A stretch of 64,000 nucleotides of DNA from Deltaproteobacteria bacterium. GTDB taxonomy: Bacteria; Desulfobacterota; GWC2-55-46; UBA9637. Every line of letters starts with the position of its first letter. Position 1 is the first letter of the stretch. Under the pieces are notes generated by a model, which was not told the DNA's origin, searched no databases, and was given only the letters and a program-made list of their open reading frames with translations. The DNA lies in the NCBI GenBank assembly GCA_030690165.1, contig JAUYHF010000007.1, forward strand, positions 131,420 through 195,419, written 5' to 3'. Below, piece by piece: positions 9,158-32,462 of the stretch. The translations under genes were made by a program, and so were the position numbers.

Positions 9158-9187
9158 ATTTTGTAGTTGCTCAATTTATTGAGCGTA

Positions 9188-9243: not shown

Positions 9244-9278
9244 CGCCGATAAATCGGCAAACTACGGTTTAAAAAACT

Positions 9279-10767: not shown

Positions 10768-11112
10768 TTGCAGGAGAGCCCCTTGAATAAAGAAGCAGAT
10801 GAGAAAGAGGTTTTATCAGAGCTAAAGCATGCCATTATGGAGATTTGCGGCAAACAGGTAGTCAGGTTTGTGCTTTACGGCTCAAGGGCAAGGGGGGATT
10901 ACGACAAAGAGTCGGATATAGACATAGCGATTGTTGTCAGGGGTATGACAAGAGAACTTAAAAACCGGATATTAGATGCTGTGTGTGACATAGAGATTAA
11001 ATATCTTACTCCCCTTTCAACTCTTGTCTTTTCCGAGGAGGATTTTGAGTTTCTGAAAAGCAGGGAGAGAAGGATAGCCCTCGATATCGAAAGGGAAGGG
11101 ATACCGTTATGA
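10768..11112 (+). CDS. minimal nucleotidyltransferase (MNT), antitoxin-like
   Basis: GSRARGDYDKESDIDIAIV is the GS-Xn-DxD nucleotidyltransferase motif; TTG start; overlaps the next ORF by 4 nt. Confidence 0.7.
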   Translation: MQESPLNKEADEKEVLSELKHAIMEICGKQVVRFVLYGSRARGDYDKESDIDIAIVVRGMTRELKNRILDAVCDIEIKYLTPLSTLVFSEEDFEFLKSRERRIALDIEREGIPL

Positions 11113-11513
11113 CGGAAGGGAATAAGAAAGACAATATCAAGATTCAACTTGAGAAGGCATCCGAAATTTTAAAAGAGGCAAATTTGCTTTTTGAGAATAA
11201 CCTTGTAAGAGGCGCAGTTTCAAGGCTCTATTACTATCTGCTTCACACTGTCCGGGCGCTCCTTCTCACCAAAGGGCTTGAACCCAAAAGCCACGAAGGG
11301 GTGTTGAGGGTTTTCGGGCAATATTTTATAAGAGAGGGGATACTGGAGGCAAGGTTTTCCCATATATTCGCAAGGCTGATGAAATACAGGGAGGAGGCTG
11401 ATTACAACCCTGCCTATGTCGTTTCAAAAGATGATTTTGTGGAGTTCAGAAAAGAGGCAGAGGTTATGTGTGACAAGATAAACAGTTATCTGAAGCAGAA
11501 GGGATATGCCTGA
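11109..11513 (+). CDS. HEPN domain protein, partner of the upstream MNT
   Basis: 134 aa helical protein, translationally coupled to MNT (ATGA overlap); typical MNT-HEPN gene order. Confidence 0.65.
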   Translation: MTEGNKKDNIKIQLEKASEILKEANLLFENNLVRGAVSRLYYYLLHTVRALLLTKGLEPKSHEGVLRVFGQYFIREGILEARFSHIFARLMKYREEADYNPAYVVSKDDFVEFRKEAEVMCDKINSYLKQKGYA

Positions 11514-12657: not shown

Positions 12658-12661
12658 AAGA

Positions 12662-12680
12662 CAGGGATCAGGGGTCGGGG
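12662..12680. repeat. left 19-bp inverted repeat flanking the four-helix-bundle gene
   Basis: CAGGGATCAGGGGTCGGGG is the exact reverse complement of 13141-13159. Confidence 0.7.
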
Positions 12681-12744
12681 GCCAGGGAACAGGGAACGAA
12701 AAAACTGGAAACGAAACAGGGGTCATGTATCAGGAGATAAAGCA

Positions 12745-14304
12745 ATGGATATTAAGAGTTATCAAGATTTAGAAGTATGGCAGAAGGCAATGGATTTAGT
12801 CATGGAGTGTTACCAAATGACAAAAACTTTTCCTAAAAGTGAAACCTATGGAATAGTCAGTCAATTACAGCGCGCGGCCGTATCTATTCCAGCCAATATT
12901 GCTGAAGGGAGAAGTCGTCAACATACAAAGGAGTTTATCCAACACCTATCTATAGCATATGGGTCGCTTGCAGAATTAGAAACTCATATTCTGCTTGCTG
13001 AACGTCTGAATTATATAGAGGAAGAACAGGTAAAGGGGATTATGTCACAGGCAGCAGAACTTGGTCGAATGTTTAATGGGTTGCAAAAATCTTTAAGGAA
13101 AAGGGTTCAGGGTTCAGAAAGCAATTCTCTTATATCCGATCCCCGACCCCTGATCCCTGACCCCTGTAACAAAGGTTTTTCTCTTGTTGAACTCTTAATA
13201 GCAATGGTTATTGCCTCTGTTGTGGGGTTGGCAGGGATTTCCATATTCTCATCCAGCAACTGGTCGTATAAGACGCAGGAGGATGTAACAGAGGCGCAAC
13301 AGAATGTAAGGGTTGCCACGGACAGGCTTACAAAGGACATAAGGATGGCTGGTTATGGCCTGCCTGACCCGCCGTTTTCGCTCTCCTTCACCGGTCTTCC
13401 AACCACATTTGTCGGTCAATCCGGCGGCAACATAACCTTGACTTCACCGATTACGGTCACAACCAGCGGCGGAGCAGGCGCCCCTGATAGTTTGACCATC
13501 CTTGGGATTGGGTATGAAGTTGGGACATTGGACACCACTACAGCGGTTGTTAATTGCGTCAATGGTATTCAGGCAAATATTAGCGGAGCTAACTGCATCC
13601 GACTCAGTGCCACTGCGAGCGTCCCTGCGGCTGATACAATTGATAGATTTTTCCCCGGGGGGGCGTTTAACAGTAATAGAATGCATATCAGCCTTGGAGG
13701 GGCAAAATACATAGCGCTTGCCGCGGCAGGCCAGACCGGTCAGGCTACCAGAACATTAGCATTGGGAAGCCCATCTACCCTTGATAGAGACTATCCTGAC
13801 GGCACGTCCGTTTATATCGTACAGGCAGTTCAATATACGATAGTATCGGATACTTCTATTGCAGGATGTTCAAGTTCAAATCCGTGTTTGATAAGTTTGG
13901 ATGCTACTGGACTCCGGGGAATGAACGGGGGAGCGCCTTCCAGACAACTCCTTGCTGAAAATATAGAGGACATTCAGTTTGCATACGGCATAGACGCAAA
14001 CCCAAGGGACAAGAAGATAGACGATACAGACGGGGATGGCTCGTTCGAGGGTCTGGATTATATATTCGCCGAGGCGGGCGATACCTTATCAGATCCGTCA
14101 AGCATAATAGTTGTTCGGGCAACTGTTGTGGGAAGGACAAGGAATACAGATATTAAAGGGCAGACTGGTTTTAAGGCGCAGTGTTTCGAAGACCGCCCTG
14201 TTGATGCCGGCACTACTAACTGCACAGGCGCGGCATCCGATGGTTACAGGCGAAGGATATTGACAAAGGTTATAAAGATAAGAAATCCTAAGACAGGGGC
14301 GTAA
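12745..14304 (+). CDS. pilW: single ORF: N-terminal four-helix-bundle protein (23S rRNA intervening-sequence protein / Avd-like family) fused in-frame to PilW-like minor pilin
   Basis: Residues 1-120 (SYQDLEVWQKAMDL ... PKSETYGIVSQLQRAAVSIPANIAEG ... YGSLAELETHILLAERL) match the four-helix-bundle family; after a repeat-encoded linker comes the prepilin motif G/FSLVELLIAMVIASVVG and a PilW-like body; no stop codon between the two parts. Confidence 0.6.
   Translation: MDIKSYQDLEVWQKAMDLVMECYQMTKTFPKSETYGIVSQLQRAAVSIPANIAEGRSRQHTKEFIQHLSIAYGSLAELETHILLAERLNYIEEEQVKGIMSQAAELGRMFNGLQKSLRKRVQGSESNSLISDPRPLIPDPCNKGFSLVELLIAMVIASVVGLAGISIFSSSNWSYKTQEDVTEAQQNVRVATDRLTKDIRMAGYGLPDPPFSLSFTGLPTTFVGQSGGNITLTSPITVTTSGGAGAPDSLTILGIGYEVGTLDTTTAVVNCVNGIQANISGANCIRLSATASVPAADTIDRFFPGGAFNSNRMHISLGGAKYIALAAAGQTGQATRTLALGSPSTLDRDYPDGTSVYIVQAVQYTIVSDTSIAGCSSSNPCLISLDATGLRGMNGGAPSRQLLAENIEDIQFAYGIDANPRDKKIDDTDGDGSFEGLDYIFAEAGDTLSDPSSIIVVRATVVGRTRNTDIKGQTGFKAQCFEDRPVDAGTTNCTGAASDGYRRRILTKVIKIRNPKTGA
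13141..13159. repeat. right 19-bp inverted repeat flanking the four-helix-bundle gene, inside the ORF
   Basis: CCCCGACCCCTGATCCCTG, encodes part of the linker DPRPLIPDP. Confidence 0.7.
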
Positions 14305-14354
14305 AAGACAGTGGTCAGTGGCCAGTGGTCAGTGATCAGAAAAAGAGGTTCAAT

Positions 14355-14903: not shown

Positions 14904-14957
14904 AAAGACAGTGATCAGTGGTCAGCGGCCAGTGGTCAGAGAGATTAAAAACGGGAG

Positions 14958-18300: not shown

Positions 18301-19945
18301 TAACGCAGGGGTGTATACAGCAGGGGATAATGCAGTTACTACAGATGTAGAGCATGGCAAGTTTGTTCCAAATGCAACCACTGACTGGCCCGGTGTTGTA
18401 ATGGGTTCAGAATTATGGGCATTTATTCCCTATGATAACCTGCCTCATCTAAAGTGGCTTACAGATCCAAATTATACCCATATTTATTACACCGACCTCA
18501 AGCCAAAGGTGACGGATGTAAGGATATTCTGCGACAGCGATGCAAGTTTAACTCCGCCTACCACGCCTAATTGTATTGATGGGCAGACCGGCGTATCTCA
18601 CCCTGGCGGCTGGGGCACTATTCTGATTGCAGGCATGAGGTTTGGCGGAGGGGCGATAACTGCAGATATAAGCGGAACCACCAGGACATTCAGGTCTGCC
18701 TATTATGTCTTTGATATAACGAATCCTGAAAAGAAGCCGAAACTACTCTGGAGGTTTACTGACGCCAACCTCGGTTTTACAACCAGTTATCCCGGCATTA
18801 TCCATATAAACAGCAGTCCTGAGAAGTGGTTTATGGTGGTCGGTTCAGGGCCTGACAATAATGTCCCTGCTGGCACACGGGGCTATGATGGGACAAGCAC
18901 GCAGCAAGGCAGGATATTTGTCGTAAATCTTTTAAACGGGACAGCGGCAATTACATTTACCAATCTTGGAATAAACAATGCCGGCGCCGTCCTTGACGCC
19001 AATACATTCATGGGCGACCCGACTGTAATTGATGGCGATCTGGATTATACAACTGATGTAATTTATATAGGAAGCGCCACTTCTACAAACAGCGGGAAGG
19101 TATTCAGGATAAATACAAATCAGGATGCCAACCCGGCTAATTGGGCGTTATCAACCCTTATAAATCAGGGGAAACCGGTTCTTGTCGGGCCATCTGTGTC
19201 AAAGGACAGCCTTAATAACTTCTGGGTATTCTTTGGAACAGGGAGGTTTTTGGCTAGTGCTGATAAGACCAATTCTGACCCTCAAACCTTCTATGGTATA
19301 AAGGATGCATGTTGGAAAACGAATACGACAACAAGCCCTTGTCCTGCCTCTGCTAACCCATACCTGCAAACCGCTCTTCTTAATTCAAGCAATTTAGCAG
19401 TTTGCACATCCGCGGGCGGCGGGGGGATTTATGATACAAGTTCCGGAACTTGCGCAACCGGCACCCAGGCTTACAGTTCATATACCAACCTTCTTGCAAC
19501 AGTAAGGGCAGGCTCAGGTTGGTATATAAATCTGGTTGACCCAACGACTCCGAGTGAGAGGGTTATTGCCAGAAGCGTTGTCCTTGGAGGTGTAGTCATT
19601 TTTACCGCCTTTACACCCAGCAGTGATATATGCGCCATGTTAGGGGATAGCAACCTATATGCCCTATACTATGAGACAGGGACAGCCTATAATAAACCTG
19701 TGATAGGCTATAGCGGGACTACTGTACTGAGAAGCAAAAGCCTTGGCAAGGGGATGCCAACTACAGTAGGTATTGCTGTGGGCAGTAAAACAAAGGGTTA
19801 TATCCAGACTTCTACAGGCACAATAGTAGAGGTGGAAACAGAACCCGCCCTTGATGTGAGGAGCGGACCAGCAGGCTGGAGGGAAAAAGAGGGCGGCGGC
19901 GGGACAGTGGATATAGAGGAGATATATAAGCATATAGTTAAGTAG
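15365..19945 (+). CDS. pilY1: PilY1-like type IV pilus tip-associated adhesin
   Basis: 1526 aa; signal peptide; N-terminal vWA-like LVLDNSGSM; large C-terminal region; position after pilX. Confidence 0.8.
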   Translation: MKRLSIITILLGMILWTPLTCKVMAQTMSDYTSTPPFISTSIQPNVLLVLDNSGSMNDEAYATTYDPTQFSSGQYYGLFDATKYYQYTNNGRWEIFPVTDTDGDGIQTDETLPSASATIANPIASGNLLNWATMSRISVAKKLLIGGKASPRSPAGAVTVKLFGETTWGFLKTFDNTSSANLIAPFTGNYRYNVSSTANFSMVPVVAGTDTVYTSPNANVSIPAGWTVFPAATNAWEDVDDTISPTISNDADTTYIQAQGTASPAMFGYDYAGAKTGTITNVGVRVVAKSNCSSTLLRRTRGVLRIGGVDYDSGFTAIATSYPATAYSFNWATNPATGAAWQWSDIKDIGNPSGNLEGFGIRPNQSNAGCYHRATQVYLVVTSGTPSGGPYNIIIDQGMTPASGIIDNLSSDARFGLAYYANSSNGGRVQEYVGFGSAVNMITSISGLAPSTWTPLGETLYEMIRHFRQDAPFYANAPADYATGNVFNDPYYYRYSTLAGSGLTDQYVPCAKSFILLLTDGESTQDITMDASIKGPPGFSWGKGVNTDGSSTSSAAGQPRLGGTNNGQTYTSSGTDYLVDAAYWARSTDARPGACTTTPTSWQQCIPGTQNVVIYPVFMFGSGSTLLKDAAIYGGFEDMNGDGKPGPDLREYLRDSNGDGSVTAADDPITYFEGDDGFALEASITNAIASIMKRSASGTSVSILATSQEGEGALYQAYYYPEKIMDDGTKRSWLGYCRGMFLDSFGNLREDSDADSTLIFKNDKIIRMRLDTSTNEVKADLYNDVSPEDGDADPATLNADGSKIDTVNNTVAIDAVATLWEAGEKLAKDITTRNIYTWVDLDNDGVVDNGDFGVSPLPSGEAYPFVSSSATALRQYIRAADDPESTNIINFVAGNNVTGYRNRCIPVTGATTETGCSGATDRVWALGDIVYSTPTTVAGPREGYDQIYGIASYTNFRNLYRDRRNIVYVGANDGMLHAFNAGVYTAGDNAVTTDVEHGKFVPNATTDWPGVVMGSELWAFIPYDNLPHLKWLTDPNYTHIYYTDLKPKVTDVRIFCDSDASLTPPTTPNCIDGQTGVSHPGGWGTILIAGMRFGGGAITADISGTTRTFRSAYYVFDITNPEKKPKLLWRFTDANLGFTTSYPGIIHINSSPEKWFMVVGSGPDNNVPAGTRGYDGTSTQQGRIFVVNLLNGTAAITFTNLGINNAGAVLDANTFMGDPTVIDGDLDYTTDVIYIGSATSTNSGKVFRINTNQDANPANWALSTLINQGKPVLVGPSVSKDSLNNFWVFFGTGRFLASADKTNSDPQTFYGIKDACWKTNTTTSPCPASANPYLQTALLNSSNLAVCTSAGGGGIYDTSSGTCATGTQAYSSYTNLLATVRAGSGWYINLVDPTTPSERVIARSVVLGGVVIFTAFTPSSDICAMLGDSNLYALYYETGTAYNKPVIGYSGTTVLRSKSLGKGMPTTVGIAVGSKTKGYIQTSTGTIVEVETEPALDVRSGPAGWREKEGGGGTVDIEEIYKHIVK

Positions 19946-20003
19946 AAAGACAGGGGTCAGGGGTCGGAAAGACAGTGGTCAGGGGTCGGAAAGACAGTGG
20001 TCA

Positions 20004-20915
20004 GTGATTTTACTGATCCCTGACCCTCGATCCCTGTATCTATGGAGGGTATTTTTGGAAAAGAAGATATGGGAAGAAAGACGAAAGAAGAAGATTGTTC
20101 TGCCAAAGGAACCCGAATCTGAGAAAAAAGATTATAGAAGATGGACGAAGTATATTATTGCCGCTGTCTTTATTATCCTTTTATTTACCCTCTTAAGGGG
20201 CAAGAAAGAAAAGATAGAGATTCCAGGGCCGGAACAGGAATCAGGGGTCAGGGGTCAGGGGTCAGAAAAACAGGGGGCAGGGGTCGTGGCTCAGAGGTCA
20301 GTGAGTAGTCCAGTCGTTGAGCTGCCGCTGCCGCCTCCGCCTAAAAAAAATACCCCCCCGGAAGTCCTGTTAATAAAGTTAAGCCCAAAGATTGTTTACC
20401 AGGGAACCAAGATAAAGGCAGAGGTTTCAGGCAAGGATGCTGATGAGGATGATGAGGTTACCTATTTTTATGAGTGGCGGAGAAACGATACTGTCTTGCC
20501 TGATAATATCCAGCCGGAGATTGATACAAAGGATTTTAAGAAGGGCGAGCTTATAACCTTGTTTGTTACGCCGTTTGACGGCAAAGACAAGGGGAAGACC
20601 AGATTTTCCAGGACAATTGTTATTGTCAACAGGCCGCCTGAGATAATATCATTCCCGCCTGTGTCTGTTTCCAACGGGAAATATCTGTACGAGGTCAAGG
20701 CAAATGACCCGGATGGCGATGCGCTTACTTATTCTCTTGAAAATGCCCCGTCCGGCATGATAATTGATCCTGCAACAGGCATAATCCGATGGGATATCCC
20801 TGTTACGGCAGATTTAAAATCGGTTACTACCTACAATATAAAGATTGTGGTAAGCGATGGCGATGCCACGGCCTTTCAAGGGTTTTCCATGACCCCTGAT
20901 GTGGAAATTAAATAA
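20004..20915 (+). CDS. membrane-anchored protein with two Ig-like/cadherin-like domains
   Basis: TM segment WTKYIIAAVFIILLFTLL, repeat-encoded linker [13 protein letters not shown], then DADEDDEVTYFYEW and DPDGDALTYSLENAPSGMIIDPATGIIRWDIP; start uncertain (GTG 20004 or TTG near 20055). Confidence 0.5.
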   Translation: MILLIPDPRSLYLWRVFLEKKIWEERRKKKIVLPKEPESEKKDYRRWTKYIIAAVFIILLFTLLRGKKEKIEIPGPEQESGVRGQGSEKQGAGVVAQRSVSSPVVELPLPPPPKKNTPPEVLLIKLSPKIVYQGTKIKAEVSGKDADEDDEVTYFYEWRRNDTVLPDNIQPEIDTKDFKKGELITLFVTPFDGKDKGKTRFSRTIVIVNRPPEIISFPPVSVSNGKYLYEVKANDPDGDALTYSLENAPSGMIIDPATGIIRWDIPVTADLKSVTTYNIKIVVSDGDATAFQGFSMTPDVEIK

Positions 20916-20978
20916 CCGGTTCCCGTTCCTTCCTTTTATGTCAAATTATATCAAATTATATCTAAATTAAAAAAATAC

Positions 20979-21025
20979 TTGACAAGTATTTAAAATTAGA
21001 CTAAAGTTGGCATAAATTATGCCAA
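20979..21025 (+). promoter_or_regulatory. sigma-70-like promoter plus palindromic operator for the HTH gene
   Basis: TTGACA 20979-20984, 17-nt spacer, TAAAGT 21002-21007; palindrome TTGGCAT-AAATT-ATGCCAA 21007-21025 overlaps -10 and the ATG, implying a leaderless transcript. Confidence 0.45.
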
Positions 21026-21216
21026 AGAATAATCTGAAAAAGATAAGAGAGAATCTCCTTATAAGCAAGGCTGAGCTTGCAAGAAAGGCCGGCATTTCTT
21101 CTCTTACCATAGACAGGGTTGAGAACGGCTATGGGTGCCGCGTGGATACTAAGCGGAAGATTATTCAGGCCCTTGGGCTTAAGCTTTCTGAAAAGAACAA
21201 GGTATTTAAGGAGTGA
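21019..21216 (+). CDS. XRE-family helix-turn-helix transcriptional regulator
   Basis: 65 aa; LISKAELARKAGISSLTIDRVENG is an XRE-type HTH; immediately upstream of pilM. Confidence 0.6.
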   Translation: MPKNNLKKIRENLLISKAELARKAGISSLTIDRVENGYGCRVDTKRKIIQALGLKLSEKNKVFKE

Positions 21217-21230
21217 TATAGAGGGAAATT

Positions 21231-22295
21231 ATGGAGCTTTCGCTGTTTAAAAAAACCGATGTGGTAGGTCTGGATATTGGCTCCAACTCTGTAAAACTTA
21301 TCCAGCTTGCCCCAACCAAAAAAGGGTGGAGGCTGTTAAATCTCGGCATAATCCAGCTTCCGCCAGAGGCTATTGTTGACGGCTCCATAATAGATTCTAT
21401 GACTGTCATGAGCGCTGTAAAGGACCTTGTCACCCAGCAGGGTATAAAGACTAAAAACTGCGTCTCCGCGCTGACAGGACATTCTGTTATTATCAAAAAG
21501 GTGAACCTCCCTGTGATGACTGAGGCAGAGTTGGGGGAATCTATTCAGTGGGAGGCAGAGCAGTATATACCCTTCCCCATAACAGATGTAAATATAGACT
21601 TTCAGATACTTGGCGCGGATACGGAAGGAAGAGGGCAGATGGAGGTAATGCTTGTTGCTGTAAAGAAGGATGTTATAAACGATTATACCAATGTCATAAA
21701 AGAGGCCGGGCTCCTGCCTGTGATTGTTGATGTGGATTCCTTTGCGCTGGAAAATATGTTTGAGATGAATTACTCCATTGCGCCTAATGAAAATATAGCA
21801 ATAGTGAATATCGGCGCAACCATTACAAGCATAAATGTTCTCCGCAGCGGCGTAACTATATTTACAAGGGCAATACCTCTTGGCGGGAACCAGTTTACGG
21901 AAGAGATACAGAAGGCCATTGGCATAAGTTTTAAAGACGCTGAAGCCATAAAGCTTGGCGGAGAGGTGAGCGGCATAGACGCAGGCGGCGTCCCTCAGGT
22001 GATTGAGCGGGTCTCAGGCAATGTTGCCCTTGAGGTTAAGAGGAGTATAGATTTTTTCCTCGGCGGCGCCCCCGGAATGTTTATCAGCAAGATTTATTTG
22101 AGCGGGGGCTGCACAAAGACAAAGGGCTTGCCGGCTATTATACAGGAGAGGACTGCAATACCTATTGAGATAGTCAACCCCTTTACCGGCGTGGAAGTAA
22201 GTCCCAGGAAATTTGCCCCTGATTATATTAAGGATATTGCGCCGTATTTTGGGGTTGCCGTCGGTCTGGCTATCAGGAAGGTTGGCGACAAATGA
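21231..22295 (+). CDS. pilM: type IV pilus assembly protein PilM
   Basis: Actin-like fold signature VGLDIGSNSVKLIQL; 354 aa; first gene of pilMNOPQ. Confidence 0.9.
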   Translation: MELSLFKKTDVVGLDIGSNSVKLIQLAPTKKGWRLLNLGIIQLPPEAIVDGSIIDSMTVMSAVKDLVTQQGIKTKNCVSALTGHSVIIKKVNLPVMTEAELGESIQWEAEQYIPFPITDVNIDFQILGADTEGRGQMEVMLVAVKKDVINDYTNVIKEAGLLPVIVDVDSFALENMFEMNYSIAPNENIAIVNIGATITSINVLRSGVTIFTRAIPLGGNQFTEEIQKAIGISFKDAEAIKLGGEVSGIDAGGVPQVIERVSGNVALEVKRSIDFFLGGAPGMFISKIYLSGGCTKTKGLPAIIQERTAIPIEIVNPFTGVEVSPRKFAPDYIKDIAPYFGVAVGLAIRKVGDK

Positions 22296-22861
22296 TAAGG
22301 ATAAACCTTTTACCAGTAAGGCTTGCAAAAAAGAAGGAGTCAATAAGGCAGCAGGCATCTGTGGCAGGTCTGAGCATTGTGCTGCTCTTTATAGTTCTTG
22401 GGGTTTTTTACTTTTCCATTACTAAGAGTATAGCTGAACTCAACGTCTCCATATCCGTCGAAGAAAAGAATATCGCCCAGTTTGATAAAGAGATAGGGGA
22501 ATTAAAAAATGTTGAAAGCGAAAAGAAGGCGATTTTGGAAAAGCTGAATATAGTCAAACAGCTTGAGATAGACAAACGACGGCACTTAAAGATATTTTCT
22601 GACATTACAGCCGCAATCCCTGAAAAACTGTGGATTGACTCTCTGAAGGATTCCGGACAAACTGTTACGCTGATTGGTTTTGCCGGGGCTGATGATATAG
22701 TGGCGGATTTTATGCGCCAGCTTGAAAAAACCCTTGTTTCATGGAAGGTTGAGCTTGAGGTTATAAATCAGGTGGAAAAGGAAAAAATAAAACTGGCGGG
22801 TTTTACTATCAGGCTTGAAGCGCCAAAAGGGCCGCCGCCTGCGGCCAAACCCAAGGCATAG
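22292..22861 (+). CDS. pilN: type IV pilus assembly protein PilN
   Basis: N-terminal RINLLP motif followed by a TM helix; overlaps pilM stop. Confidence 0.85.
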   Translation: MIRINLLPVRLAKKKESIRQQASVAGLSIVLLFIVLGVFYFSITKSIAELNVSISVEEKNIAQFDKEIGELKNVESEKKAILEKLNIVKQLEIDKRRHLKIFSDITAAIPEKLWIDSLKDSGQTVTLIGFAGADDIVADFMRQLEKTLVSWKVELEVINQVEKEKIKLAGFTIRLEAPKGPPPAAKPKA

Positions 22862-22917
22862 TTGTAGCTCAAGGCTTTAGCCTTGATAAACCTTCAAACC
22901 TGAAGGTTTGAGCTACA
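22862..22917. repeat. 56-bp structured palindromic element, copy 2 (between pilN and pilO)
   Basis: TTGTAGCTCAAGGCTTTAGCCTTGATAAACCTTCAAACCTGAAGGTTTGAGCTACAA; paralog of 9188-9243. Confidence 0.6.
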
Positions 22918-22940
22918 AATAGACCTTCTAAAGGAGTCTT

Positions 22941-23528
22941 GTGCCAAAGTTTGATGTAGATATAATACTTAAATTGTCCCTTTCTAAAAGGCTTTTGATA
23001 CTTGGGGCTGTCGTGCTTGTTATAACAGGGGTTTTTTATTATTTTTTATACGGCGCAAAATTAAATGAGAAAATCGCCTTAAGCGCAAAATTAGAGGGGT
23101 TTAAGAATACAGTTTCGGAAAAACAGAGGTTAGCCGCCAACCTTCCCAAATTAAAAAAAGAGATTGAGGATCTGAACAACCAGTTCAAACTGGCGCTTGA
23201 GGCCCTGCCCAACGAAAAAGAGATCGCCAATCTTCTCGAAAGCATATCTGATGCGGCTAAGACCGCAAGACTGGATATATTGACCTTTAAGCCGGGAAAG
23301 GAAACCCCAAAGGGTTTTTATGCCGAAGTGACGATAGATATGAAGGTGGAGGGCGGATACAACAGCGTTATTTCCTTCTTTGAAAAGGTTGCAGGGATGC
23401 CAAGGATAGTTAATATAAACGGCTTAAATATAACAAGCGGTAAAGAGGTCAGGGGTGATATTATGATGTCAGCTACTTTTGCAGCGACGACATTTAAGTT
23501 TCTGCCTCAGCCGGAGGCGAAGAAATAA
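22941..23528 (+). CDS. pilO: type IV pilus assembly protein PilO
   Basis: N-terminal TM helix, coiled-coil region, position and size (195 aa). Confidence 0.85.
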   Translation: MPKFDVDIILKLSLSKRLLILGAVVLVITGVFYYFLYGAKLNEKIALSAKLEGFKNTVSEKQRLAANLPKLKKEIEDLNNQFKLALEALPNEKEIANLLESISDAAKTARLDILTFKPGKETPKGFYAEVTIDMKVEGGYNSVISFFEKVAGMPRIVNINGLNITSGKEVRGDIMMSATFAATTFKFLPQPEAKK

Positions 23529-23529
23529 T

Positions 23530-24120
23530 ATGGGTAATTTACAAGTCACCAGTTATAAGTCACCAGTCACCAGTCACAAGACTAAAAACTCAAGTCTGGT
23601 GACTTTGTGTCTGGCGACCTTGTGTCTGGCGACCTTGTGTGTCGGTTGCCAGCAAGGCGCGCCGCCACAGCCCCCTGCGGCAGAGGTAAAAAAAGAGGCT
23701 CCGAAACCGGAGACTGTGCCTATTGCTGGAGAGGCAAAAAAAGAAGAGAAGGCTCCGCCTAAAGCGGATGAGGTAAATCCGCAGAGAAATCCTTTTAAAA
23801 CATTTATTGTTAAAGCAACCGAGAGGCCGTCAGTTGTTGCGCCAAAGACGCCTTTACAGAGGTATGAACTGGAGCAGCTAAAATTAGTGGCAATAATGTG
23901 GGGCATTAACAGCCCCGCAGCCATGGTGGAGACACCGGACGGCAAAGGCTATTCAATAAAAAAAGGATACCTTATCGGGAACAGGGAAGGAAGGGTTAAG
24001 CGGATTGAAAAGGACAGGGTGATAGTGGAGGAGAGGTTTACAGAGGCCCGCGGCGAGGTTGTAACCAACGAGTTTGAAATAAAACTGCCGCTGCCCAAAG
24101 GAGAGGAGGAGTTAAGATGA
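23530..24120 (+). CDS. pilP: type IV pilus assembly lipoprotein PilP
   Basis: Position between pilO and pilQ; Cys-containing signal region (LCVGC); Pro/Ala-rich linker; N-terminal 40 codons are built from inverted heptamer/15-mer arrays, so start is uncertain. Confidence 0.7.
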   Translation: MGNLQVTSYKSPVTSHKTKNSSLVTLCLATLCLATLCVGCQQGAPPQPPAAEVKKEAPKPETVPIAGEAKKEEKAPPKADEVNPQRNPFKTFIVKATERPSVVAPKTPLQRYELEQLKLVAIMWGINSPAAMVETPDGKGYSIKKGYLIGNREGRVKRIEKDRVIVEERFTEARGEVVTNEFEIKLPLPKGEEELR

Positions 24121-27002
24121 AAAATAAAAATGTAAAATGCAAAATGCAAAATACAAAAGGTTTCCTTCCATATTTTATATTCTGCCTGCTGCTTACTATA
24201 TTTTTTACAGGTTGCGCGCCTACTAAGTCGCAGATAAAGAGTGGAGAGGGAGTGGAAAAGGCAGCCATTGAGAAGATTTCGGTTGTTGGAGGGGGGAGGG
24301 AGATATTGATAGAGGCTTCAGGGCCTATAACCTACACTGCCTTTAAGCTTTCTGACCCGGCAAGGCTGGTGCTGGATATTCCAGGGGCAGATATAGAAAA
24401 GGTAAAGGCCCCGATGGATGTTAATAATGAGTTTATAAACAGGATTGTTGTCGCAAGCTACGGGGAGGAGGGAATGGCGCCCATTTCCAGAGTGGAAATA
24501 GGGTTAAAGGAGAGGGTAGCCAGTGATGTAAAGCTCGCAGAAGGCAGTATTCTGGTGGCTTTGAATTATGAAGTTATTCCCCAGCATGAGGCTGAGACAC
24601 CTGTTGTGGTTGAGCCCCAAGTGGCAGAGGAAAAGGCCGCCGAGGCGCCGCCTTTAACAGAGCCCCTCCAGCAGGAGATTGCAAAAAAAGAAGAAGCCAT
24701 AAAGGCGGCTGTGGAAGAGGCCGGCCCTGCCCTTGCTGAGGCTGAAAAGAAAGAGATAAAAAAGGCTGACAAATTGTTGAAGATAGAGACGAGGAAGGAA
24801 AAGAACCGCACAATAATAAAGGTGATTGGCAACGGGCCGATAGGCGATTTTAATGCCTTTACAATGGATAAGCCTGCGCCGTCAAGGATTGTTGTGGATG
24901 TATGGAATGTTAAGAGTTCAATTCCGGGAGACGGTCTTGCTGTAAGCAGTCCTTATGTAAAGAAGGTAAGGGTAGGTGAACATCCGGATAAGGTGAGGCT
25001 CGTGTTTGATTCAGGCCAGAAGAATGTGCCGCCCTATACAATAGAGAGGGTTGACAACTCCCTTGTAATAACTGTCGGCAGGATTGATGTAAAGAAGCCT
25101 GAAACAGCCGCAGTAGTTGCTCCGGTAACTGCGCCGCAAGAGCCTCCTGTGGAAACAGCACAGCAGCCTTCGGCAGCCGTGCCCGCTCCTGAACCTGTAA
25201 AGGCCGATTATGCAGAAATCAAGGCGGTTGATTTCAAGCAGCTTGCGGATAAGGCAAGGCTTATTATAACTGCGTCAAAGAAGATAGAATACAGATTGTT
25301 AAAATTACCGGATGAAACAGGACTGGCGCTGGATATTAAGGATGCTATAATACCTGACGAACTCAAACGGACACTCGACGCCTCTGACCTTAACACGCCA
25401 GTGGCCAGCATAAGCTCATTCCAGGCGACTACTGAGTCTGCAAAGGATGTCCGTATACTTGTTAAATTAAAAGAAAAGGCTATTTATGATATTTCACAGG
25501 AAGGCGAAAGAATACAAATAGATTTTCCGCTGCTCGCAGCGGCGCAGGCGGTTCCAAAGATGGCAGAGATAAAAAGTCAGGAGTCAGAGCTCAGGGGCCT
25601 GCCCCCGAATGTTTCTATCGGGGGTCAGGAGATAAAAGAAACAAAGCTGGCAGAAGATGCTATAAACAAGGAACAGGCATCAGGCTATACAGGACGCAAG
25701 ATTTCTCTGGACTTTAAGGATGCTGATATAAGTAATATTTTGAGATTGATGGCAGAGGTCAGCAATCTGAATATTATTGCGGGCGAGGATGTTAAAGGCA
25801 AGGTTTCGTTAAGATTGATAGATGTTCCATGGGATCAGGCATTCGAGATCATATTAAAAACAAACGGTCTTGGCAAGGTTCAGGAAGGGAATGTAGTAAG
25901 GATTTTGCCCCTTGCTAAGATAAAACAGGAGAGTGAAGATGCGCTTGCCTCTAAAAAGGCAAAGGAAAAACTTGAAGACCTTGAGATAAAATTGCTGTCT
26001 GTCAACTACGCAACTGCCAGCGCTTTAGAATCCCAGGTCAAAGGCTTATTAAGCGATAGGGGGACTGTTACAGTAGAGGCAAGGACGAATACGCTTATTA
26101 TTAAAGATATCCCTGCCAATATAGCAAAGGCAGTGGACATGGCAAAGAAATTGGATACGCCGACGCCGCAGGTCTTGATAGAGGCAAGGATCGTAGAGGC
26201 GCAGAGCAGTTTTGCAAGGGACCTCGGTGTGCAGTGGGGCGCTGCTACTCTTACAACAAGCAAAAATAAGTTTAGCAGCGGGTTTGGCAGCGCTTCGGCT
26301 ACCCCATCGCCCACCCTTACCCCCACTAGTACCACTACCACCCCCACTACCCCCAGTTTTATCAGCTCAGGGGGGCAGTTCTCATCGCAGCCTAATTTTG
26401 CGGTAAGCCTTCCTGCGGCGGGCGCTGCAGGGACATTGGGCGCAATGGGTTTTTCGTTCGGTAAACTTATAGGCGACCCGTTTCTTTTAGACCTCCGCAT
26501 ATCAGCCGGCGAAAAAAATGGTTTGACAAAGACCATATCAAGGCCGAGGATTACCACACTGAATAATAAGGAGGCCAAAATATCTCAAGGCGACTCAGTG
26601 CCATTTGAAACAACATCTTCTTCTGGCACACAAACCTCTTTTATTGATGCAACACTTGAACTCATTGTTACTCCGCATATAACCCCGGACGGCAGCGTGA
26701 GCATGAAAATCAAGGCCAGCAGGAACTCAATAGGCTCTTTCAGATCTGCTGCCGGTACGCCGAGCATAAGCAAAAAAGAGGCGTCTACAGAGATAATTGT
26801 AAAAAGCGGGGAGACAGCGGTTATCGGCGGCATTGTGATAGAGGATAAGTCAGATACCGGCAGCGGCATACCATGGCTTAAGGATATCCCTATACTCGGC
26901 TGGCTCTTTAAAAACAAATCAACATCAGAAAGCCAGACAGAGCTCCTGATATTTATTACGCCGAATATTGTAAGCGGCGAAGTGGAGTTGTCGCCAAGTT
27001 AA
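24117..27002 (+). CDS. pilQ: type IV pilus secretin PilQ
   Basis: 961 aa; signal peptide; repeated N-terminal beta domains; C-terminal secretin domain (NTLIIKDIPANIAKAVDMAKKLD ... VLIEARIVEA ... LLIFITP). Confidence 0.9.
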   Translation: MKNKNVKCKMQNTKGFLPYFIFCLLLTIFFTGCAPTKSQIKSGEGVEKAAIEKISVVGGGREILIEASGPITYTAFKLSDPARLVLDIPGADIEKVKAPMDVNNEFINRIVVASYGEEGMAPISRVEIGLKERVASDVKLAEGSILVALNYEVIPQHEAETPVVVEPQVAEEKAAEAPPLTEPLQQEIAKKEEAIKAAVEEAGPALAEAEKKEIKKADKLLKIETRKEKNRTIIKVIGNGPIGDFNAFTMDKPAPSRIVVDVWNVKSSIPGDGLAVSSPYVKKVRVGEHPDKVRLVFDSGQKNVPPYTIERVDNSLVITVGRIDVKKPETAAVVAPVTAPQEPPVETAQQPSAAVPAPEPVKADYAEIKAVDFKQLADKARLIITASKKIEYRLLKLPDETGLALDIKDAIIPDELKRTLDASDLNTPVASISSFQATTESAKDVRILVKLKEKAIYDISQEGERIQIDFPLLAAAQAVPKMAEIKSQESELRGLPPNVSIGGQEIKETKLAEDAINKEQASGYTGRKISLDFKDADISNILRLMAEVSNLNIIAGEDVKGKVSLRLIDVPWDQAFEIILKTNGLGKVQEGNVVRILPLAKIKQESEDALASKKAKEKLEDLEIKLLSVNYATASALESQVKGLLSDRGTVTVEARTNTLIIKDIPANIAKAVDMAKKLDTPTPQVLIEARIVEAQSSFARDLGVQWGAATLTTSKNKFSSGFGSASATPSPTLTPTSTTTTPTTPSFISSGGQFSSQPNFAVSLPAAGAAGTLGAMGFSFGKLIGDPFLLDLRISAGEKNGLTKTISRPRITTLNNKEAKISQGDSVPFETTSSSGTQTSFIDATLELIVTPHITPDGSVSMKIKASRNSIGSFRSAAGTPSISKKEASTEIIVKSGETAVIGGIVIEDKSDTGSGIPWLKDIPILGWLFKNKSTSESQTELLIFITPNIVSGEVELSPS

Positions 27003-27202
27003 TGGATGTATGAAACATCCATGAGCCTTTGGCTCACAAAGAAGGATGAAAATTAACCCCACCCTCACCTGAAACATCCATTGAGGATGTTTCAGTCCTC
27101 TCCCTGAGGGAGAGGAGACTTTTTTGTTCCCTCCCCTTCAAGGGGAGGGTTAGGGTGGGGATGGGGTAAAGAGGGTATTTTCAGGTGAAAATATCGTTTT
27201 AA

Positions 27203-27392: not shown

Positions 27393-28628
27393 ATGCTGAG
27401 ATACTTAACAGCAGGTGAATCACACGGTAAATATTTGACTGCCATTCTGGAAGGCGCGCCGGCAAATCTTAATTTGGCTGCGGATGATATAAATAAAGAA
27501 CTAAGCCGCAGGCAGATTGGCTACGGCCGCGGCGGCAGAATGGCTATTGAAAAAGATGAAGCAGAGATTACATCGGGGGTAAGGTTTGGCAAGACCATAG
27601 GTTCGCCTATTGCTATGGTTATAAAAAATAGAGATTGGGAGAATTGGAAAGAGGTTATGAATACAGGGGTCAGGGGTCAGGGGTCAGGGGTCAAAGAGAT
27701 TACCCATCCAAGGCCGGGCCATGCGGATCTGGCAGGCGCCTTGAAATATGGCCAGTATGATATTCGCAATATTCTTGAACGTTCCAGCGCAAGGGAAACC
27801 GCGGCGCGGGTTGCTGTTGGCGCAGTATGTAAAAGATTTCTGGATGAGATTGGGATAAAAGTGATGAGTTGGGTGGTGGATATAGCAGGGGTCAGGGGTC
27901 AGGGGTCAGGGGTCAGAGAGGAGAATGATATAGAAGCAATTTTTAAACTGGCAGAAGCATCTGATGTGCGTTGTCCTGATAAAAAGATTGCAGAAAAAAT
28001 GAGAAAGGCGATAGATAGGGCAAGAAAAAACGGCGACAGCCTTGGCGGGATATTTGAGGTTGCTGTAACCGGCGTTCCTCCGGGTCTTGGAAGCCATGTC
28101 CAGTGGGATAGAAAATTAGATGGGAATCTGGCAAGGGCGCTTATGAGCATTCAGGCCATAAAAGGGGTTGAGGCGGGTATAGGGTTTGAAGCGGCTGAGA
28201 GATTTGGATCAGAGGTGCATGATGAGATATTTTATAAAATCTCCCCTGACCCCTCTTTGCCAAAGAGGGGAAAATCATCTCCCCCTTTGGAAAAGGGGGA
28301 TAAAGGGGGATTTTACAGAAAAACCAACAATGCCGGCGGCATAGAGGGAGGCATGAGCAACGGCGAACCGATTATACTCCGGGCTGCGATGAAACCGATA
28401 CCAACATTATATAAACCGCTTCGGTCAATAGATATAAAAACAAAAAAGCAGTTTCAGGCAAGTGTTGAAAGGTCGGATATATGCGCTGTGCCTGCTGCTT
28501 CAGTGGTTGGCGAGGCAGTTGTTGCCTTTGAGATAGCCAATGCCTTTATAGATAAATTTGGCGGCGATTCTATCTATGAGGTAAAAAGGAATTATAAGGG
28601 GTATCTGGAGTATTTGAGGAAGTTTTAA
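27393..28628 (+). CDS. aroC: chorismate synthase
   Basis: [30 protein letters not shown] motifs; 411 aa, about 50 aa longer than typical because of three repeat-encoded in-frame insertions. Confidence 0.9.
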
Positions 28629-29129: not shown

Positions 29130-29175
29130 TATGGTAGTCTGCCGATTTATCGGCGCTTTTAAAAGACGCCCATAA

Positions 29176-30282
29176 ATGGGCATACTACATATGGAACGCA
29201 TTACTGTAAATCTTGGTGAGCGAAGCTATCCAATCTATATCGGGAGAAATAATCTCGATATGGTGGGAGAGTTGATGAAGCAGAAAGGTCTTAATGGCAA
29301 AGCAGCCTGTATTACAAATCCTACGGTAGGGAAACTTTATGGCAACAGGGCGCTTGATAGTCTTGGCAAGGCAGGTTTTGAGGTTTTCAGAATAGATATC
29401 CCTGACGGCGAAGAGTACAAAAGCCTTGAATGGCTCTCGCATATATATGATAAACTTATTGAATATAAGATGGAGAGGCAATCCCCTATTGTTGCCCTTG
29501 GCGGCGGCGTTGTAGGGGATATTGCAGGTTTTGCGGCAGCTACATACTTAAGGGGTGTGCCGTATATTCAGGTTCCAACGACACTCCTGTCCCAGGTTGA
29601 CAGTTCTGTCGGCGGCAAGACTGGGGTGAATCATCCAAAGGGCAAAAACCTTATAGGCGCATTCTATCAGCCAAAGATGGCGCTTTTAGATGTGGATGTT
29701 CTTAAGACGCTTGGAGAGAGGGATATAAAGGCGGGCTTGGCTGAAGTTATTAAATATGGTATTATCAAGGACGCCGGTTTCTTCTCGTTTTTAGAGGAAA
29801 ATTATGCGGATGTTCTCAAACTGGGAGATAGCCTGCTGCATGTTGTAAAGGTGTCATGCGGGATAAAGGCGCGGGTGGTTGAAGAGGATGAGAGGGAGGC
29901 GGGCATAAGGTCAATACTTAACTTTGGACATACATTCGGCCATGCAGTAGAGACCGTGACCGACTATAAGGAGTTAAGGCACGGCGAGGCAGTTGCCATC
30001 GGCATGGCTGCTGCCGCAAGGCTCTCTTTTAAACTCGGCCTGTGCAGTAAAGATGTTTGCGAAAGGATAGAAAGATTGGTATCAAAGATTGGTCTTCCCA
30101 TAAAGCTATCAGCTGTCAGCCGTCAGCTATCAGCTAAAGAATTATTACAGGCTATGGAGATGGATAAAAAGGCGGCTGGAGGAAATATAAAGTTTGTGAT
30201 GGTGGAAGATATTGGCAAGGTAATATTTAAACAGATGGGAAGAGCGGATTTTTCCATTGACTTATCAGAGATTTTAAACTAA
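29176..30282 (+). CDS. aroB: 3-dehydroquinate synthase
   Basis: GGGVVGDIAGFAAATYLRGVPYIQVPTTLLSQVDSSVGGKTGVN; alternative start ATG 29191; in-frame heptamer array 30105-30135. Confidence 0.88.
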   Translation: MGILHMERITVNLGERSYPIYIGRNNLDMVGELMKQKGLNGKAACITNPTVGKLYGNRALDSLGKAGFEVFRIDIPDGEEYKSLEWLSHIYDKLIEYKMERQSPIVALGGGVVGDIAGFAAATYLRGVPYIQVPTTLLSQVDSSVGGKTGVNHPKGKNLIGAFYQPKMALLDVDVLKTLGERDIKAGLAEVIKYGIIKDAGFFSFLEENYADVLKLGDSLLHVVKVSCGIKARVVEEDEREAGIRSILNFGHTFGHAVETVTDYKELRHGEAVAIGMAAAARLSFKLGLCSKDVCERIERLVSKIGLPIKLSAVSRQLSAKELLQAMEMDKKAAGGNIKFVMVEDIGKVIFKQMGRADFSIDLSEILN

Positions 30283-30896: not shown

Positions 30897-31973
30897 ATAT
30901 CTACTGAAATCAGAACAAGGTTAAAGAAGATTCAGGAGAGATTCTCATCCTGGAATATAGATATCCTGCTCATAACCACACCCGAAAATATCCGCTATCT
31001 GAGCGGATTTACAGGGACGAGCGGGGTAATTGTTATAACGTTGCATGAGGCATTCTTTTTAACTGATTGGAGATATGCCGCACAGTCAAGATACGAGATA
31101 AGCGGATTAAGAGTAAAGATATATAAAAAACAGACTGAAGATGTTGCGTCTTTAATAAACAGGCTAAAGCCCAGACGCATAGGATTTGAGGCAAAGGGGC
31201 TTACTTATGAGATATATCGCAGGCTGAAAGTCTTGCTGCGGGGAAAGCGGCTCGTTCCTCTGCCTGATGATATTAACAGGATAAGGGCCAGAAAAAATGC
31301 GGGTGAATTGAAACTTATAAGAATGGCCGTTGGTTTGGCGGCTGTTGGTTTTAATGCAGCAGTGAATTGCATAGCCGCAGGGATACGGGAATGCGATGCA
31401 GCCCTTAATATAGAAATGGAAATGAGAAAAAATGGGGCAGAGGGTCTTTCTTTTGATATAATTGTCGCCTCCGGCATACGGGCGGCTTTACCCCACGGCA
31501 AGGCCTCTCTGAAGAGGATAAAAAAAACAGAAACTGTTATTGTTGACCTTGGCGCAAGATACCGGGGTTATCATTCAGATGAGACATGCACATTTATAAT
31601 GGGTAAACCTGGCAGGGAACAAAAAAAGGTTTATCAGATAGTTAAGGATGCCCATGATAAGGCGATAGAGGCTGTAAGGCCAGGGGTGAAGGCATCTTAT
31701 ATAGATTCTGTGGCGAGGGGTTTTATTAAAGATGCCGGATACGGTAAATATTTTGGTCATGGCACAGGTCATGGGGTTGGGCTTGCTATTCATGAATGGC
31801 CGAATATCTCTCCTTATAATGATGATGTTTTAGAAGAGGCTATGGTTTTCACTATAGAACCGGGGATATATATACATGGCTGGGGCGGTGTAAGGATTGA
31901 GGATATGGTCCTTGTTAAAAAGGATGGCTGCGAGGTTTTGACAGAGATGTCAAAAGAGATGGTGATATTGTAG
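30897..31973 (+). CDS. Xaa-Pro aminopeptidase / M24 family metallopeptidase; non-canonical or unresolved start
   Basis: Creatinase-like N-domain plus M24 catalytic motifs [15 protein letters not shown] and EPGIYI; homology begins right after the previous gene's TAA in the same frame; first in-frame ATG (31041) would remove about 48 conserved residues. Confidence 0.7.
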
Positions 31974-31992
31974 AAGATTAAGGGAGGTTATT

Positions 31993-32457: not shown

Positions 32458-32462
32458 ATACA

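Follow-up and report, generated by a model that had tools for sequence, protein, structure and literature searches.

Short tandem arrays of seven-nucleotide units recur between and within the genes of a 64-kb stretch of DNA from a Deltaproteobacteria bacterium (GenBank assembly GCA_030690165.1, contig JAUYHF010000007.1, positions 131,420 to 195,419; this whole stretch is hereafter the window, and all positions refer to it unless stated otherwise). The question raised by this locus is what such arrays are, and how they came to occupy spacers, leader sequences and enzymes alike. The explanation favoured here, with some reservation, is that they constitute selfish or neutral DNA, a dense and multi-family population that resembles both the short tandemly repeated repetitive (STRR) sequences and the repetitive extragenic palindrome doublets forming hairpins (REPINs), and that is shaped by the spread of whole elements, the turnover of units, and survival at permissive sites.

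The abundance of the arrays is specific to one period length. Tandem Repeats Finder returned 59 rows for the window, 32 of them with a period of 7 or 8. In our own scan, 15 period-7 arrays of at least three copies were found where shuffled sequence gave 0.25, which is about 60-fold over chance, and period-8 arrays numbered five against 0.1 in shuffles, while periods 4–6 and 9–12 remained at chance level. The typical arm consists of about four to five tandem units of 7 nt (sometimes 8 nt), or about 33 nt in total, and array density is highest within the first 35 kb. All seven loci at which an earlier note on this DNA, made from the sequence alone, had listed heptamer units do contain them. A CRISPR-like organisation is excluded, since the units are contiguous and have no spacers. 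The census of short tandem arrays that the earlier note proposed for the genome was carried out for the window and for lineage contigs around aroC, and in both of these period 7 (and to some extent period 8) is enriched.

The same enrichment is found in relatives of the host. The nearest species representatives are two groundwater ‘Deltaproteobacteria bacterium’ metagenome-assembled genomes (MAGs), which have AroC identities of 73–74% and conserved gene order, and carry 1.2–1.3 arrays per kb; related groundwater MAGs and ‘Deltaproteobacteria’ contigs span a range of 0.4–1.3 per kb, or 0.3–1.3 per kb with the window included. Relatives were sampled around aroC only. In 150 kb drawn from eleven clade members, 90 period-7 arrays were counted (0.60 per kb), compared with 52 in 2.2 Mb around aroC of some 150 other bacteria (0.023 per kb). 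Relative to these other bacteria, period 7 is enriched 26-fold in the lineage and period 8 4-fold, period 14 follows period 7, and the remaining periods are at background. The 90 lineage arrays fall into 57 canonical unit consensuses. Their copy number has a median of 4.7, rarely exceeds six units and varies within a narrow range, and a TCAG/CTGA core is present in 28% of them against an expected 5%.

These densities bear on the simplest objection, namely that the arrays are assembly or low-complexity artefacts, or contaminating cyanobacterial DNA. One Logan contig does terminate within an array, at position 20243. Against this, Logan contigs from an independent assembly of SRR13727534 are 100% identical to the window over 20243–27063 and 31400–45135. 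Arrays occupy orthologous positions in MAGs and related contigs from several other groundwater sites, and open reading frames (ORFs) stay intact across them. Neither synteny nor gene content is cyanobacterial: the segment encodes a type IV pilus cluster, selB/selD, and alpha-2-macroglobulin with PBP1C, and its nearest relatives are the groundwater ‘Deltaproteobacteria’ MAGs. Since these related genomes and contigs are dense in arrays and other bacteria are not, the arrays are neither artefacts nor cyanobacterial DNA. Such an origin, with virtually no probability left to it, is already refuted by the independent assembly and by the arrays of relatives. Confinement to the window and an assembly origin, either of which the earlier note would have taken to overturn its observation, were thus both contradicted by what was found.

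The arrays are not scattered at random with respect to genes. Positional statistics were computed for the 20 window arrays that pass a low-complexity filter, against a curated set of genes spanning 89.4% of the window. The non-coding remainder, 10.6% of the window, contains nine of the 20 arrays (45%) entirely, and 12 of the 20 lie no more than 60 nt from a gene boundary, where 3.5 are expected and the maximum in 2000 randomisations was 11. The view that arrays are pervasive and concentrated at gene boundaries is therefore well founded. It holds as an enrichment, as CAGCTAT/CAGCCAT arrays (9471, 30104), CAGGGGT arrays (27664, 27886, 20235) and a CAGTTCA array (5616) lie deep inside genes. Eight of the nine intergenic arrays start 2–6 nt past the upstream stop codon and reach the next ribosome-binding site.

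Several spacers of the pilus cluster show this placement. A CAGGGRT array of five copies (12661–12697, plus strand) begins 5 nt past the pilV stop, a single CAGTGGT array of 4.4 copies (14307–14342, plus strand) runs from the pilW stop to the pilX ribosome-binding site, and a further single CAGTGGT array of 4.4 copies (14909–14941, plus strand) begins 6 nt past the pilX stop. A head of the form AAAGA-CAGKGRT is common to the arrays that follow the pilV, pilW, pilX and pilY1 stop codons. The array at 19945–20036 is more elaborate, comprising a 22-nt higher-order unit, AAAGA-CAGKGGT-CAGGGGT-CGG, in 2.7 copies with 97% matches (19945–20004), and an inverted arm of reverse-complement units, CTGATCC in 3.4 copies (20013–20036).

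One practical consequence is the misplacement of gene starts. The earlier note suspected that three ORFs starting at GTG or TTG codons within arrays were artefactual, and in each case there is an in-frame start with a good ribosome-binding site just downstream. Position 6692 (TTG) falls within the 3' arm of a hairpin, and translation from the in-frame TTG at 6716, after AAGGAG, yields an N-terminus typical of PilD. Position 14325 (GTG) is inside the array before pilX and is followed by an in-frame ATG at 14355 after AGAGG, and the GTG at 20004 lies inside the hairpin at 19945–20036, with an in-frame TTG at 20055 after GGAGG. The ORF start at 14958 is likely misplaced in the same way, with the ATG at 14964 as the start, and so, probably, is the one at 703, where an AAATTGC array of five copies (704–746, plus strand) begins at the stop codon of a cNMP-binding gene and lies within the 5' end of a transglutaminase ORF.

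Many arrays come in inverted pairs. The statement that they usually do so holds for intergenic sites only, about six of nine of which are inverted doublets; the seven loci of the earlier note comprise three local inverted pairs, one pair that spans a 356-nt gene, and three single arrays (14307, 14909, 48972). The doublets fold as imperfect hairpins of 25–35 bp. Six of them have folding energies of −28 to −45 kcal/mol and z-scores, computed against dinucleotide shuffles, of −4.9 to −8.6. An octamer doublet (unit GAGTCAGA) in the argJ–HEPN spacer (6089–6171, arms 6089–6124 and 6138–6170) folds at −41.1 kcal/mol (z = −8.6, over 6086–6175). Its second copy, inverted, lies in the HEPN–pilD spacer (6610–6703; −33.9 kcal/mol, z = −5.9, over 6608–6705), and a third overlaps the 3' end of lipB (34669–34734; −28.4 kcal/mol, z = −5.2, over 34665–34740). 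The accB–accC spacer holds a doublet of AGGCTAT/AGGCAAG/AGGCGAT units (32459–32549; −37.1 kcal/mol, z = −7.0, over 32458–32552). In these four stems, mismatches recur at unit-length spacing. The array and inverted arm at 19945–20036 form a long imperfect hairpin (−44.6 kcal/mol, z = −4.9), and an AGTCACC array with an inverted arm (period 15), covering the PilP N-terminus and its lipoprotein signal peptide (23539–23640), folds at −45.3 kcal/mol. Among the lineage arrays, at least 16 of 90 have an inverted partner by a strict ungapped test, as compared with 0.25% of random 33-mers, and this paired fraction is a lower bound because the ungapped test undercounts imperfect doublets.

Inverted pairs also enclose whole genes. 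The array after pilV is the left arm of a stem around a 23S-rRNA-intervening-sequence (23S-IVS)/bAvd-like gene, and its right arm is a CCCTGAC array of four copies (13136–13166, minus strand; the reverse complement of CAGGGGT); the duplex has an energy of −51 kcal/mol. The ORF at 12745–14304 encodes the bAvd-like four-helix bundle and continues in frame through the CCCTGAC array into PilW (KGFSLVELLI), with no stop codon and no ATG, GTG or TTG in between. PilW may be synthesised as a fusion protein from which prepilin peptidase cleaves the leader, or its translation may begin at a non-standard codon. The bAvd-like gene prompted the idea of a link to diversity-generating retroelements, which was rejected because neither a reverse transcriptase nor a template/variable repeat pair is present. 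Much as the inverted CAGGGGT arrays flank this gene, a lone HEPN gene (6186–6608) sits between the two inverted octamer doublets, and the region 6081–6706 has the appearance of a cassette with long terminal inverted repeats; the two doublets pair across the whole HEPN gene in the minimum-energy fold of the transcript.

Stable stems at such positions raise the possibility that the arrays are selected cis-elements: RNase III or decay-barrier stems, terminators or attenuators, ribosome standby or regulator sites, or G-quadruplex switches. Stems of 25–35 bp in polycistronic messenger RNAs would likely affect processing or decay, and the long stems could act as barriers to RNase III or exonucleases, or as processing sites. 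The GGGGTCA family is also predicted to be able to form G-quadruplexes. Consistent with a role of this kind, the stems are very stable, the arrays follow so closely on the upstream stop codon in eight of nine spacers, and a hairpin is present in the accB–accC spacer of every relative even though its sequence differs. Moreover, (GGGGTCA)4 has exactly four G-tracts, as do the G-quadruplex-forming GGGNATC repeats (PMC4692102), and the repeats of Beggiatoaceae just 5' of start codons have been proposed as regulator sites (PMC4679880). However, the same elements are found in frame in AroC, AroB, ArgJ and a poly(A) polymerase-family gene, and those in spacers vary by presence among close relatives, for example between aroC and aroK. 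A single sequence-specific binder is excluded because there are 57 unit families, only one family is G-rich, and no overall terminator-like T-tract pattern is seen. Plain intrinsic terminators were also considered and rejected: the hairpins were missed by a simple scan, which counted 17 terminator-like sites in the window against 20.6 in shuffles. Selection for cis-acting function is thus regarded as rather improbable as a general explanation.

In several cases, arrays or doublets at unlinked sites are closely related. Positions 32459–32485, in the accB–accC doublet, and 48978–49004, in a single AGGYTAT/GGGCAAG/AGGCGAT array of the fer4–thiolase spacer (48972–49004, plus strand), are 93% identical over 27 nt and have in common the order of the unit variants AGGCTAT, AGGCAAG and AGGCGAT. 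The octamer doublet, about 85 nt long, occurs three times (6089, 6610 and 34669); the first copy and the inverted second copy are 85% identical including their loops, with a 38-nt core at 97%. The two CAGGGGT arrays of AroC are 97% identical to each other.

Companion elements without tandem units behave similarly. A double palindrome of about 80 nt (28237–28314) is translated in AroC loop 3 as an insertion of about 20 residues, and an inverted copy with 91% identity lies in the aroC–aroK spacer of locus L083, a contig from the Hainich aquifer (L083 1391–1471). Since the element occupies an AroC position in the window and lies inverted in the spacer of L083, it has moved recently. These two copies and the sequence at 33907–33929 belong to a small family of G/C palindromes (CCCCTCTTTG..CAAAGAGGGG and TCCCCCTTT..AAAGGGGGA), further members of which are present in L090 (at 2144), L092 (929) and L016 (11242). 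A second, non-array element of about 60–75 nt with two inner hairpins (TCAAGGCTTTAGCCTTGA, TCAAACCTGAAGGTTTGA) is found in the kinase–regulator (9185–9265) and pilN–pilO (22850–22930) spacers. A hairpin element, GCCGATAAATCGGC, occurs at 9237–9265 and, inverted, in the aroK–aroB spacer (29134–29176), where L083 has no counterpart. In L088, a 21-nt palindrome (CCCTTAAGGG) is nested inside a CAGGGGT array.

Relatedness of this kind is what distinguishes dispersal from purely local change. The arrays might instead be microsatellites generated in place by polymerase slippage, with a footprint of about 7 nt and no copying between loci, along the lines of the ‘long SSR’ (simple sequence repeat) idea of Mrazek et al. 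2007, as it is cited in PMC4692102 and PMC4679880. The strict specificity of the enrichment for period 7, the intermediate unit variants within arrays, the 22-nt higher-order unit at 19945 and the lack of a mobility gene in the window would all fit. Nevertheless, slippage does not account for unlinked loci with the same order of unit variants, or for three copies of a doublet of about 85 nt that includes its loop; nor does it predict the inverted pairs, or a copy-number range that is narrow rather than geometric. Slippage alone is disfavoured because whole arrays and doublets have been copied. Local turnover of units also takes place, as is evident from the intermediate units and higher-order repeats.

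The comparison of orthologous sites shows how far that turnover goes. In a three-way alignment of the window with loci L003 and L004, identical sites are occupied, mostly by differing units. Loop 1 of AroC was compared across twenty loci. It holds CAGGGGT in the window and L003, GGAATGC in L083, GGGCAAK in L084 and L085, and GAGTTYG in L087, L088 and L004; array pairs are present in L004 and L088, a G/C palindrome in L090, and ordinary sequence of equal length in outgroups. Although the coding flanks of L083 have about 90–95% nucleotide identity to the window, five of the seven unit positions of loop 1 differ in all four units, with the length unchanged, an alteration for which in-place slippage offers no ready account and which adds to the grounds for considering that explanation unlikely on its own. 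Overwriting at constant length was entertained as a rule and rejected: loop 1 is 93 nt long in four members and 99–126 nt in others, and lengths vary at other sites too.

Other sites have changed to a similar extent. AroC loop 2 contains CAGAAGC, GGATTTC or a hairpin-rich insert of about 100 nt in orthologues, the insert being that of L083, and the double palindrome of loop 3 in the window is matched in L083 by an AAGTCAC array. At 96% identity, L088 and L090 still differ: an array pair in one stands opposite a palindrome in the other, and CAGGGGT in one stands opposite CAGAGTT in the other, some of the units being intermediate. Differences at array sites are likewise seen between L086 and L087. 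The CAGCTRT unit of the AroB array is kept in L003, L004 and L086 and lost in L087. The aroC–aroK spacer lacks an element in the window and L086 but has one in L003, L004, L083 and L087, and the accB–accC spacer of L004 retains the outer stem seen in the window with a second array pair nested in its loop.

Rapid change at pilus genes might suggest contingency loci, in which changes in unit number switch genes on or off (phase variation). Many arrays do lie in the pilus cluster, at the 5' ends of or just upstream of pilW, pilX, pilP and pilQ, and a 7-nt unit shifts the reading frame. But housekeeping genes and spacers are equally affected, the frame is kept in every orthologue examined, copy numbers are low (the median of 4.7), and L085 and L086, which are 99.9% identical, show no difference in unit number. 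Phase variation is therefore considered very unlikely.

That the frame is kept is most striking where arrays are translated. About one third of the window arrays lie in frame within genes: twice in AroC, and in AroB, ArgJ, an NtrC-type regulator, and the leaders of PilP and PilQ. The window arrays listed next are all on the plus strand. A CAGTTCA array of 3.4 copies (5610–5642) is translated in ArgJ at a position that is gapped in solved homologues, and a CAGCYAT array of 4.6 copies (9471–9502) is translated as SHQLSAISHQ in a receiver-domain loop of the NtrC-type regulator. A CAGGGGT-type array with period 7 and a higher-order period of 36 (20235–20301) is translated within the linker that follows the membrane helix of a He_PIG protein. 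The PilQ N-terminus has an AAAATGC array of 4.6 copies (24117–24158), and its orthologue in L004 has other arrays at this place. In AroC, (CAGGGGT) in 4.3 copies is translated in loop 1 after the conserved WENWKEVM (27664–27696, with four G-tracts), and (CAGGGGT) in 4.4 copies in the next variable loop, loop 2 (27886–27918). CAGCTRT, in 4.7 copies, is translated in a loop of AroB (30104–30136). In-frame arrays are also present in the poly(A) polymerase-family gene of L003.

Each of the five intragenic arrays that were checked coincides with a position that is variable or gapped when compared with solved homologues. Since 7 is not divisible by 3, successive units of an array are read in successive frames, all three being used, and within genes only a stop-free orientation can survive. 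In relatives, the ORFs remain intact despite the arrays, and the encoded peptides differ between orthologues. At 7930–7965 and 8795–8848, the histidine-kinase ORF (7499–9157) contains degenerate G-rich arrays and a CCTGCCCCTGCAAG / AGTAAGCAGGGGT inverted pair; these are probably older, decaying members of the CAGGGGT family.

Taken as selfish or neutral DNA, the arrays would be shaped in three ways. First, whole arrays and doublets would be copied to unlinked sites in the manner of REPINs or MITEs (miniature transposable elements with inverted repeats), by a copying mechanism that we infer. Second, the units within an array would be replaced quickly through slippage or conversion, in 7-nt register. 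Third, selection would leave arrays only where sequence is unconstrained, that is, in gaps between stop codons and ribosome-binding sites, N-terminal leaders or signal peptides, and surface loops; where an array falls in a protein loop, its stop-free orientation would simply be translated. This explanation fits better than that of functional sites because there are many unit families, because elements are present or absent among close relatives, and because they occur in both spacers and enzymes, at unconstrained positions only.

Several observations weigh against it. The case for dispersal is built on sequence identity, as no transposase, reverse transcriptase or target-site duplication was found within the window. 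The explanation does not account for the period of 7 nt, the narrow size range of the arrays or their bias towards TCAG. The failure of the simple terminator scan to catch the array hairpins counts here as well as against terminators. The accB–accC spacer has its hairpin in every relative despite the turnover of its sequence, which could reflect selection for structure rather than a hot spot. L085 and L086 have identical arrays, and because contigs with 99.9% identity do not differ in them, ongoing instability is not demonstrated. Finally, intragenic fractions outside the window are biased by the sampling of relatives around aroC.

Heptamer arrays also extend beyond the clade. Sixteen contigs in IMG/VR contain an exact (CAGGGGT)4 and 22 an exact (CAGAAGT)4, and these are mostly of 55–69% G+C. 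In a set of 38 predicted viral contigs (L163–L200), the overall density is 0.48 arrays per kb, many contigs carry several heptamer families at high density, and among non-seed arrays the TCAG share is once more 28%. One of them, L181 (1–13135), belongs to a Mu-like phage with MuA and MuB homologues and has 19 arrays in 13 kb, between early genes. Near aroC in other MAGs, inverted ACGCAAT arrays lie on either side of the gene in an Omnitrophota member (L069 9800–11190), and a GTTAGAA pair and a CAGTAAG array adjoin it in Bacillota (L048 2006–2111) and Nitrospiraceae (L044 3690–3747), respectively.

A more speculative proposal, held at low probability, is that a dedicated system writes or transposes TCAG-preferring heptamer arrays of about 33 nt into DNA that is unconstrained or prone to form hairpins, and that it acts in many uncultured bacteria and their Mu-like phages. 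Candidates may include a single-strand transposase of the Y1/RAYT type (RAYT, REP-associated tyrosine transposase), a reverse transcriptase or a repair polymerase. If this were true, the arrays would be the smallest mobile elements known, and recurrent overwriting of the same loops would diversify essential enzymes.

By Pfam annotation, the window is a segment of bacterial chromosome with nearly all transcription on one strand. ArgJ comes first, followed by the type IV pilus cluster (PilD, the histidine kinase and NtrC-type regulator, minor pilins, PilY1 and PilMNOPQ), then by AroC-AroK-AroB, AccB-AccC and LipB, and lastly by the poly(A) polymerase-family enzyme, SelB, SelD, and alpha-2-macroglobulin with PBP1C. 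A phage origin, considered on account of the one-strand gene order and GC skew, was dropped after this annotation, and a megablast of 24 kb against phage records gave no match. Rfam (at the gathering threshold) and tRNA scans of the window likewise gave none. Small genes of toxin–antitoxin or defence type are dense among the housekeeping operons (6186–6608, 10768–11513, 45917–46180, 47274–48572), including the HEPN gene, an MNT–HEPN pair, and AF2212-like, TumE and AbiU2 genes. Downstream of selD, an ORF of 584 residues (42747–44501) has no Pfam match.

Heptamer tandem repeats have been known since 1990, and this clade makes the question of their origin and function tractable. Arrays are 10–30 times denser than reported for Xanthomonas and fall into dozens of unit families; metagenomic genomes of relatives exist in large number, at 75–99.9% identity; and there are fixed hot spots, including three AroC loops, at which successive replacements can be read directly. 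The clade is thus suited to comparative-genomic and read-level study of how arrays arise and spread. It is also evident from the arrays that repeat DNA can be translated in the surface loops of essential enzymes and be tolerated there. For annotation and assembly, they mislead gene callers into false GTG/TTG starts and fused ORFs, such as that of the IVS-protein gene with pilW, and they break short-read assemblies.

How, then, do these arrays relate to repeats already described? The cyanobacterial STRR heptanucleotide repeats were reportedly described by Mazel and colleagues in 1990, and Vioque is said to have found them in 1997 within helix P12 of RNase P RNA. The STRR units are CCCCA(A/G)T (STRR1), TT(G/T)GTCA (STRR2) and CAACAGT (STRR3). 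The resemblance to these repeats that the earlier note perceived stands for the 7-nt period, the short arrays and the intergenic location, and fails for the units themselves: none of the 57 consensuses from the 90 arrays equals STRR1, STRR2 or STRR3, the nearest being at least one base off (GTGGTCA against TTGGTCA, and CCCCTGA). STRRs are also alike in forming several degenerate families per genome, mostly intergenic within operons, in varying between close relatives, and in being tolerated at variable sites inside structured genes. Here, by contrast, the host belongs to a groundwater lineage that is not photosynthetic, arrays are far denser, inverted doublets occur often, and many arrays are read in frame as protein.

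The small dispersed repeats of Nostoc, hairpin elements of 21–27 nt, are reportedly nested in tandem heptamer arrays, according to Elhai and colleagues in 2008. The 21-nt insert in an array of L088 and the nested array pair of L004 are single examples that may be likened to them in layout, with no similarity of sequence to be expected. These Nostoc repeats are named in PMC3116915, and the STRRs are cited in PMC4692102 as the Calothrix repeats.

The GGGNATC / GGGGA(C/T)T heptamers of Xanthomonas and Nostoc prefer about four units and lie between co-directional ORFs, near the upstream stop (Rehm et al. 2015, PMC4692102). Many form convergent pairs able to adopt stem-loops, they vary between close species, and their 7-nt period has been suggested to reflect a polymerase footprint; Xanthomonas has about 186 arrays per approximately 5 Mb, 7–11% of them intragenic (PMC4692102). 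The arrays described here share the over-representation of period 7, the mainly intergenic location, the preference for about four units, the proximity to the upstream ORF and the convergent pairs, and the GGGGTCA family has a layout that would be compatible with G-quadruplexes. However, one G-rich family dominates there, whereas at least 57 consensuses occur here, the majority of them not rich in G; four G-tracts are confined to the GGGGTCA family (27664, 27886, 20241, 12662).

Direct repeats of TAACTGA are found in marine Beggiatoaceae and in some Cyanobacteria and Bacteroidetes, in two to six copies and mostly in intergenic DNA (MacGregor 2015, PMC4679880). They lie a few nt from the start codon, in an orientation constrained by stop codons, and are sporadic across phyla (PMC4679880). 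They too are heptamer arrays, positioned just upstream of start codons, and contain the TCAG/CTGA core; unlike the present arrays, they have a single unit, are almost never inverted, and are not accompanied by repeats of related heptamers. No TAACTGA/TCAGTTA array is present among the window and lineage arrays, the nearest unit being CAGTTCA against CAGTTAT. Phase-variable contingency SSRs differ in another respect, as there is no polymorphism of unit number between L085 and L086 and all orthologous ORFs are intact.

REPINs are inverted doublets with arms of about 30 nt and a less conserved spacer, which form hairpins in single-stranded DNA or messenger RNA and are mobilised by a RAYT (Bertels & Rainey 2011, PMC3116915). 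Hairpin-forming inverted doublets dispersed as multiple copies in short spacers (the octamer doublet in three copies, the AGGCTAT type in two) are shared with the present arrays, and singlets resemble decayed doublets. REP arms, in contrast, are not internally periodic; a genome has one to three families of them, each linked to a RAYT gene, and no RAYT was seen among the annotated ORFs of the 64-kb window and about 90 kb of related contigs. REPINs are also strictly extragenic, whereas the arrays here are translated in AroC, AroB, ArgJ, the response regulator, PilP and PilQ. For that property, the closer parallel is with Rickettsia palindromic elements, which are selfish and lie translated, in frame, at fold-compatible sites of unrelated housekeeping genes (Ogata et al. 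2000, as summarised in PMC10969869). Both occupy structurally permissive sites of housekeeping proteins. As that summary presents them, the Rickettsia elements are about 100–150 bp long and have a conserved peptide and no tandem periodicity, compared with arms of 30–35 nt read in three frames here; the double palindrome of about 80 nt at 28237–28314 is a closer analogue.

Membership therefore fails for each named family, because unit sequence, extragenic restriction or element size does not agree. The cyanobacterial STRRs and the GGGNATC repeats of Xanthomonas and Nostoc are nearest in kind, REPINs in architecture and dispersal, and Rickettsia palindromic elements in the occupancy of reading frames. 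The arrays are distinct from known heptamer repeats in their density, the number of their families, their in-frame occupancy of housekeeping genes, and the rapid replacement of units at hot spots.

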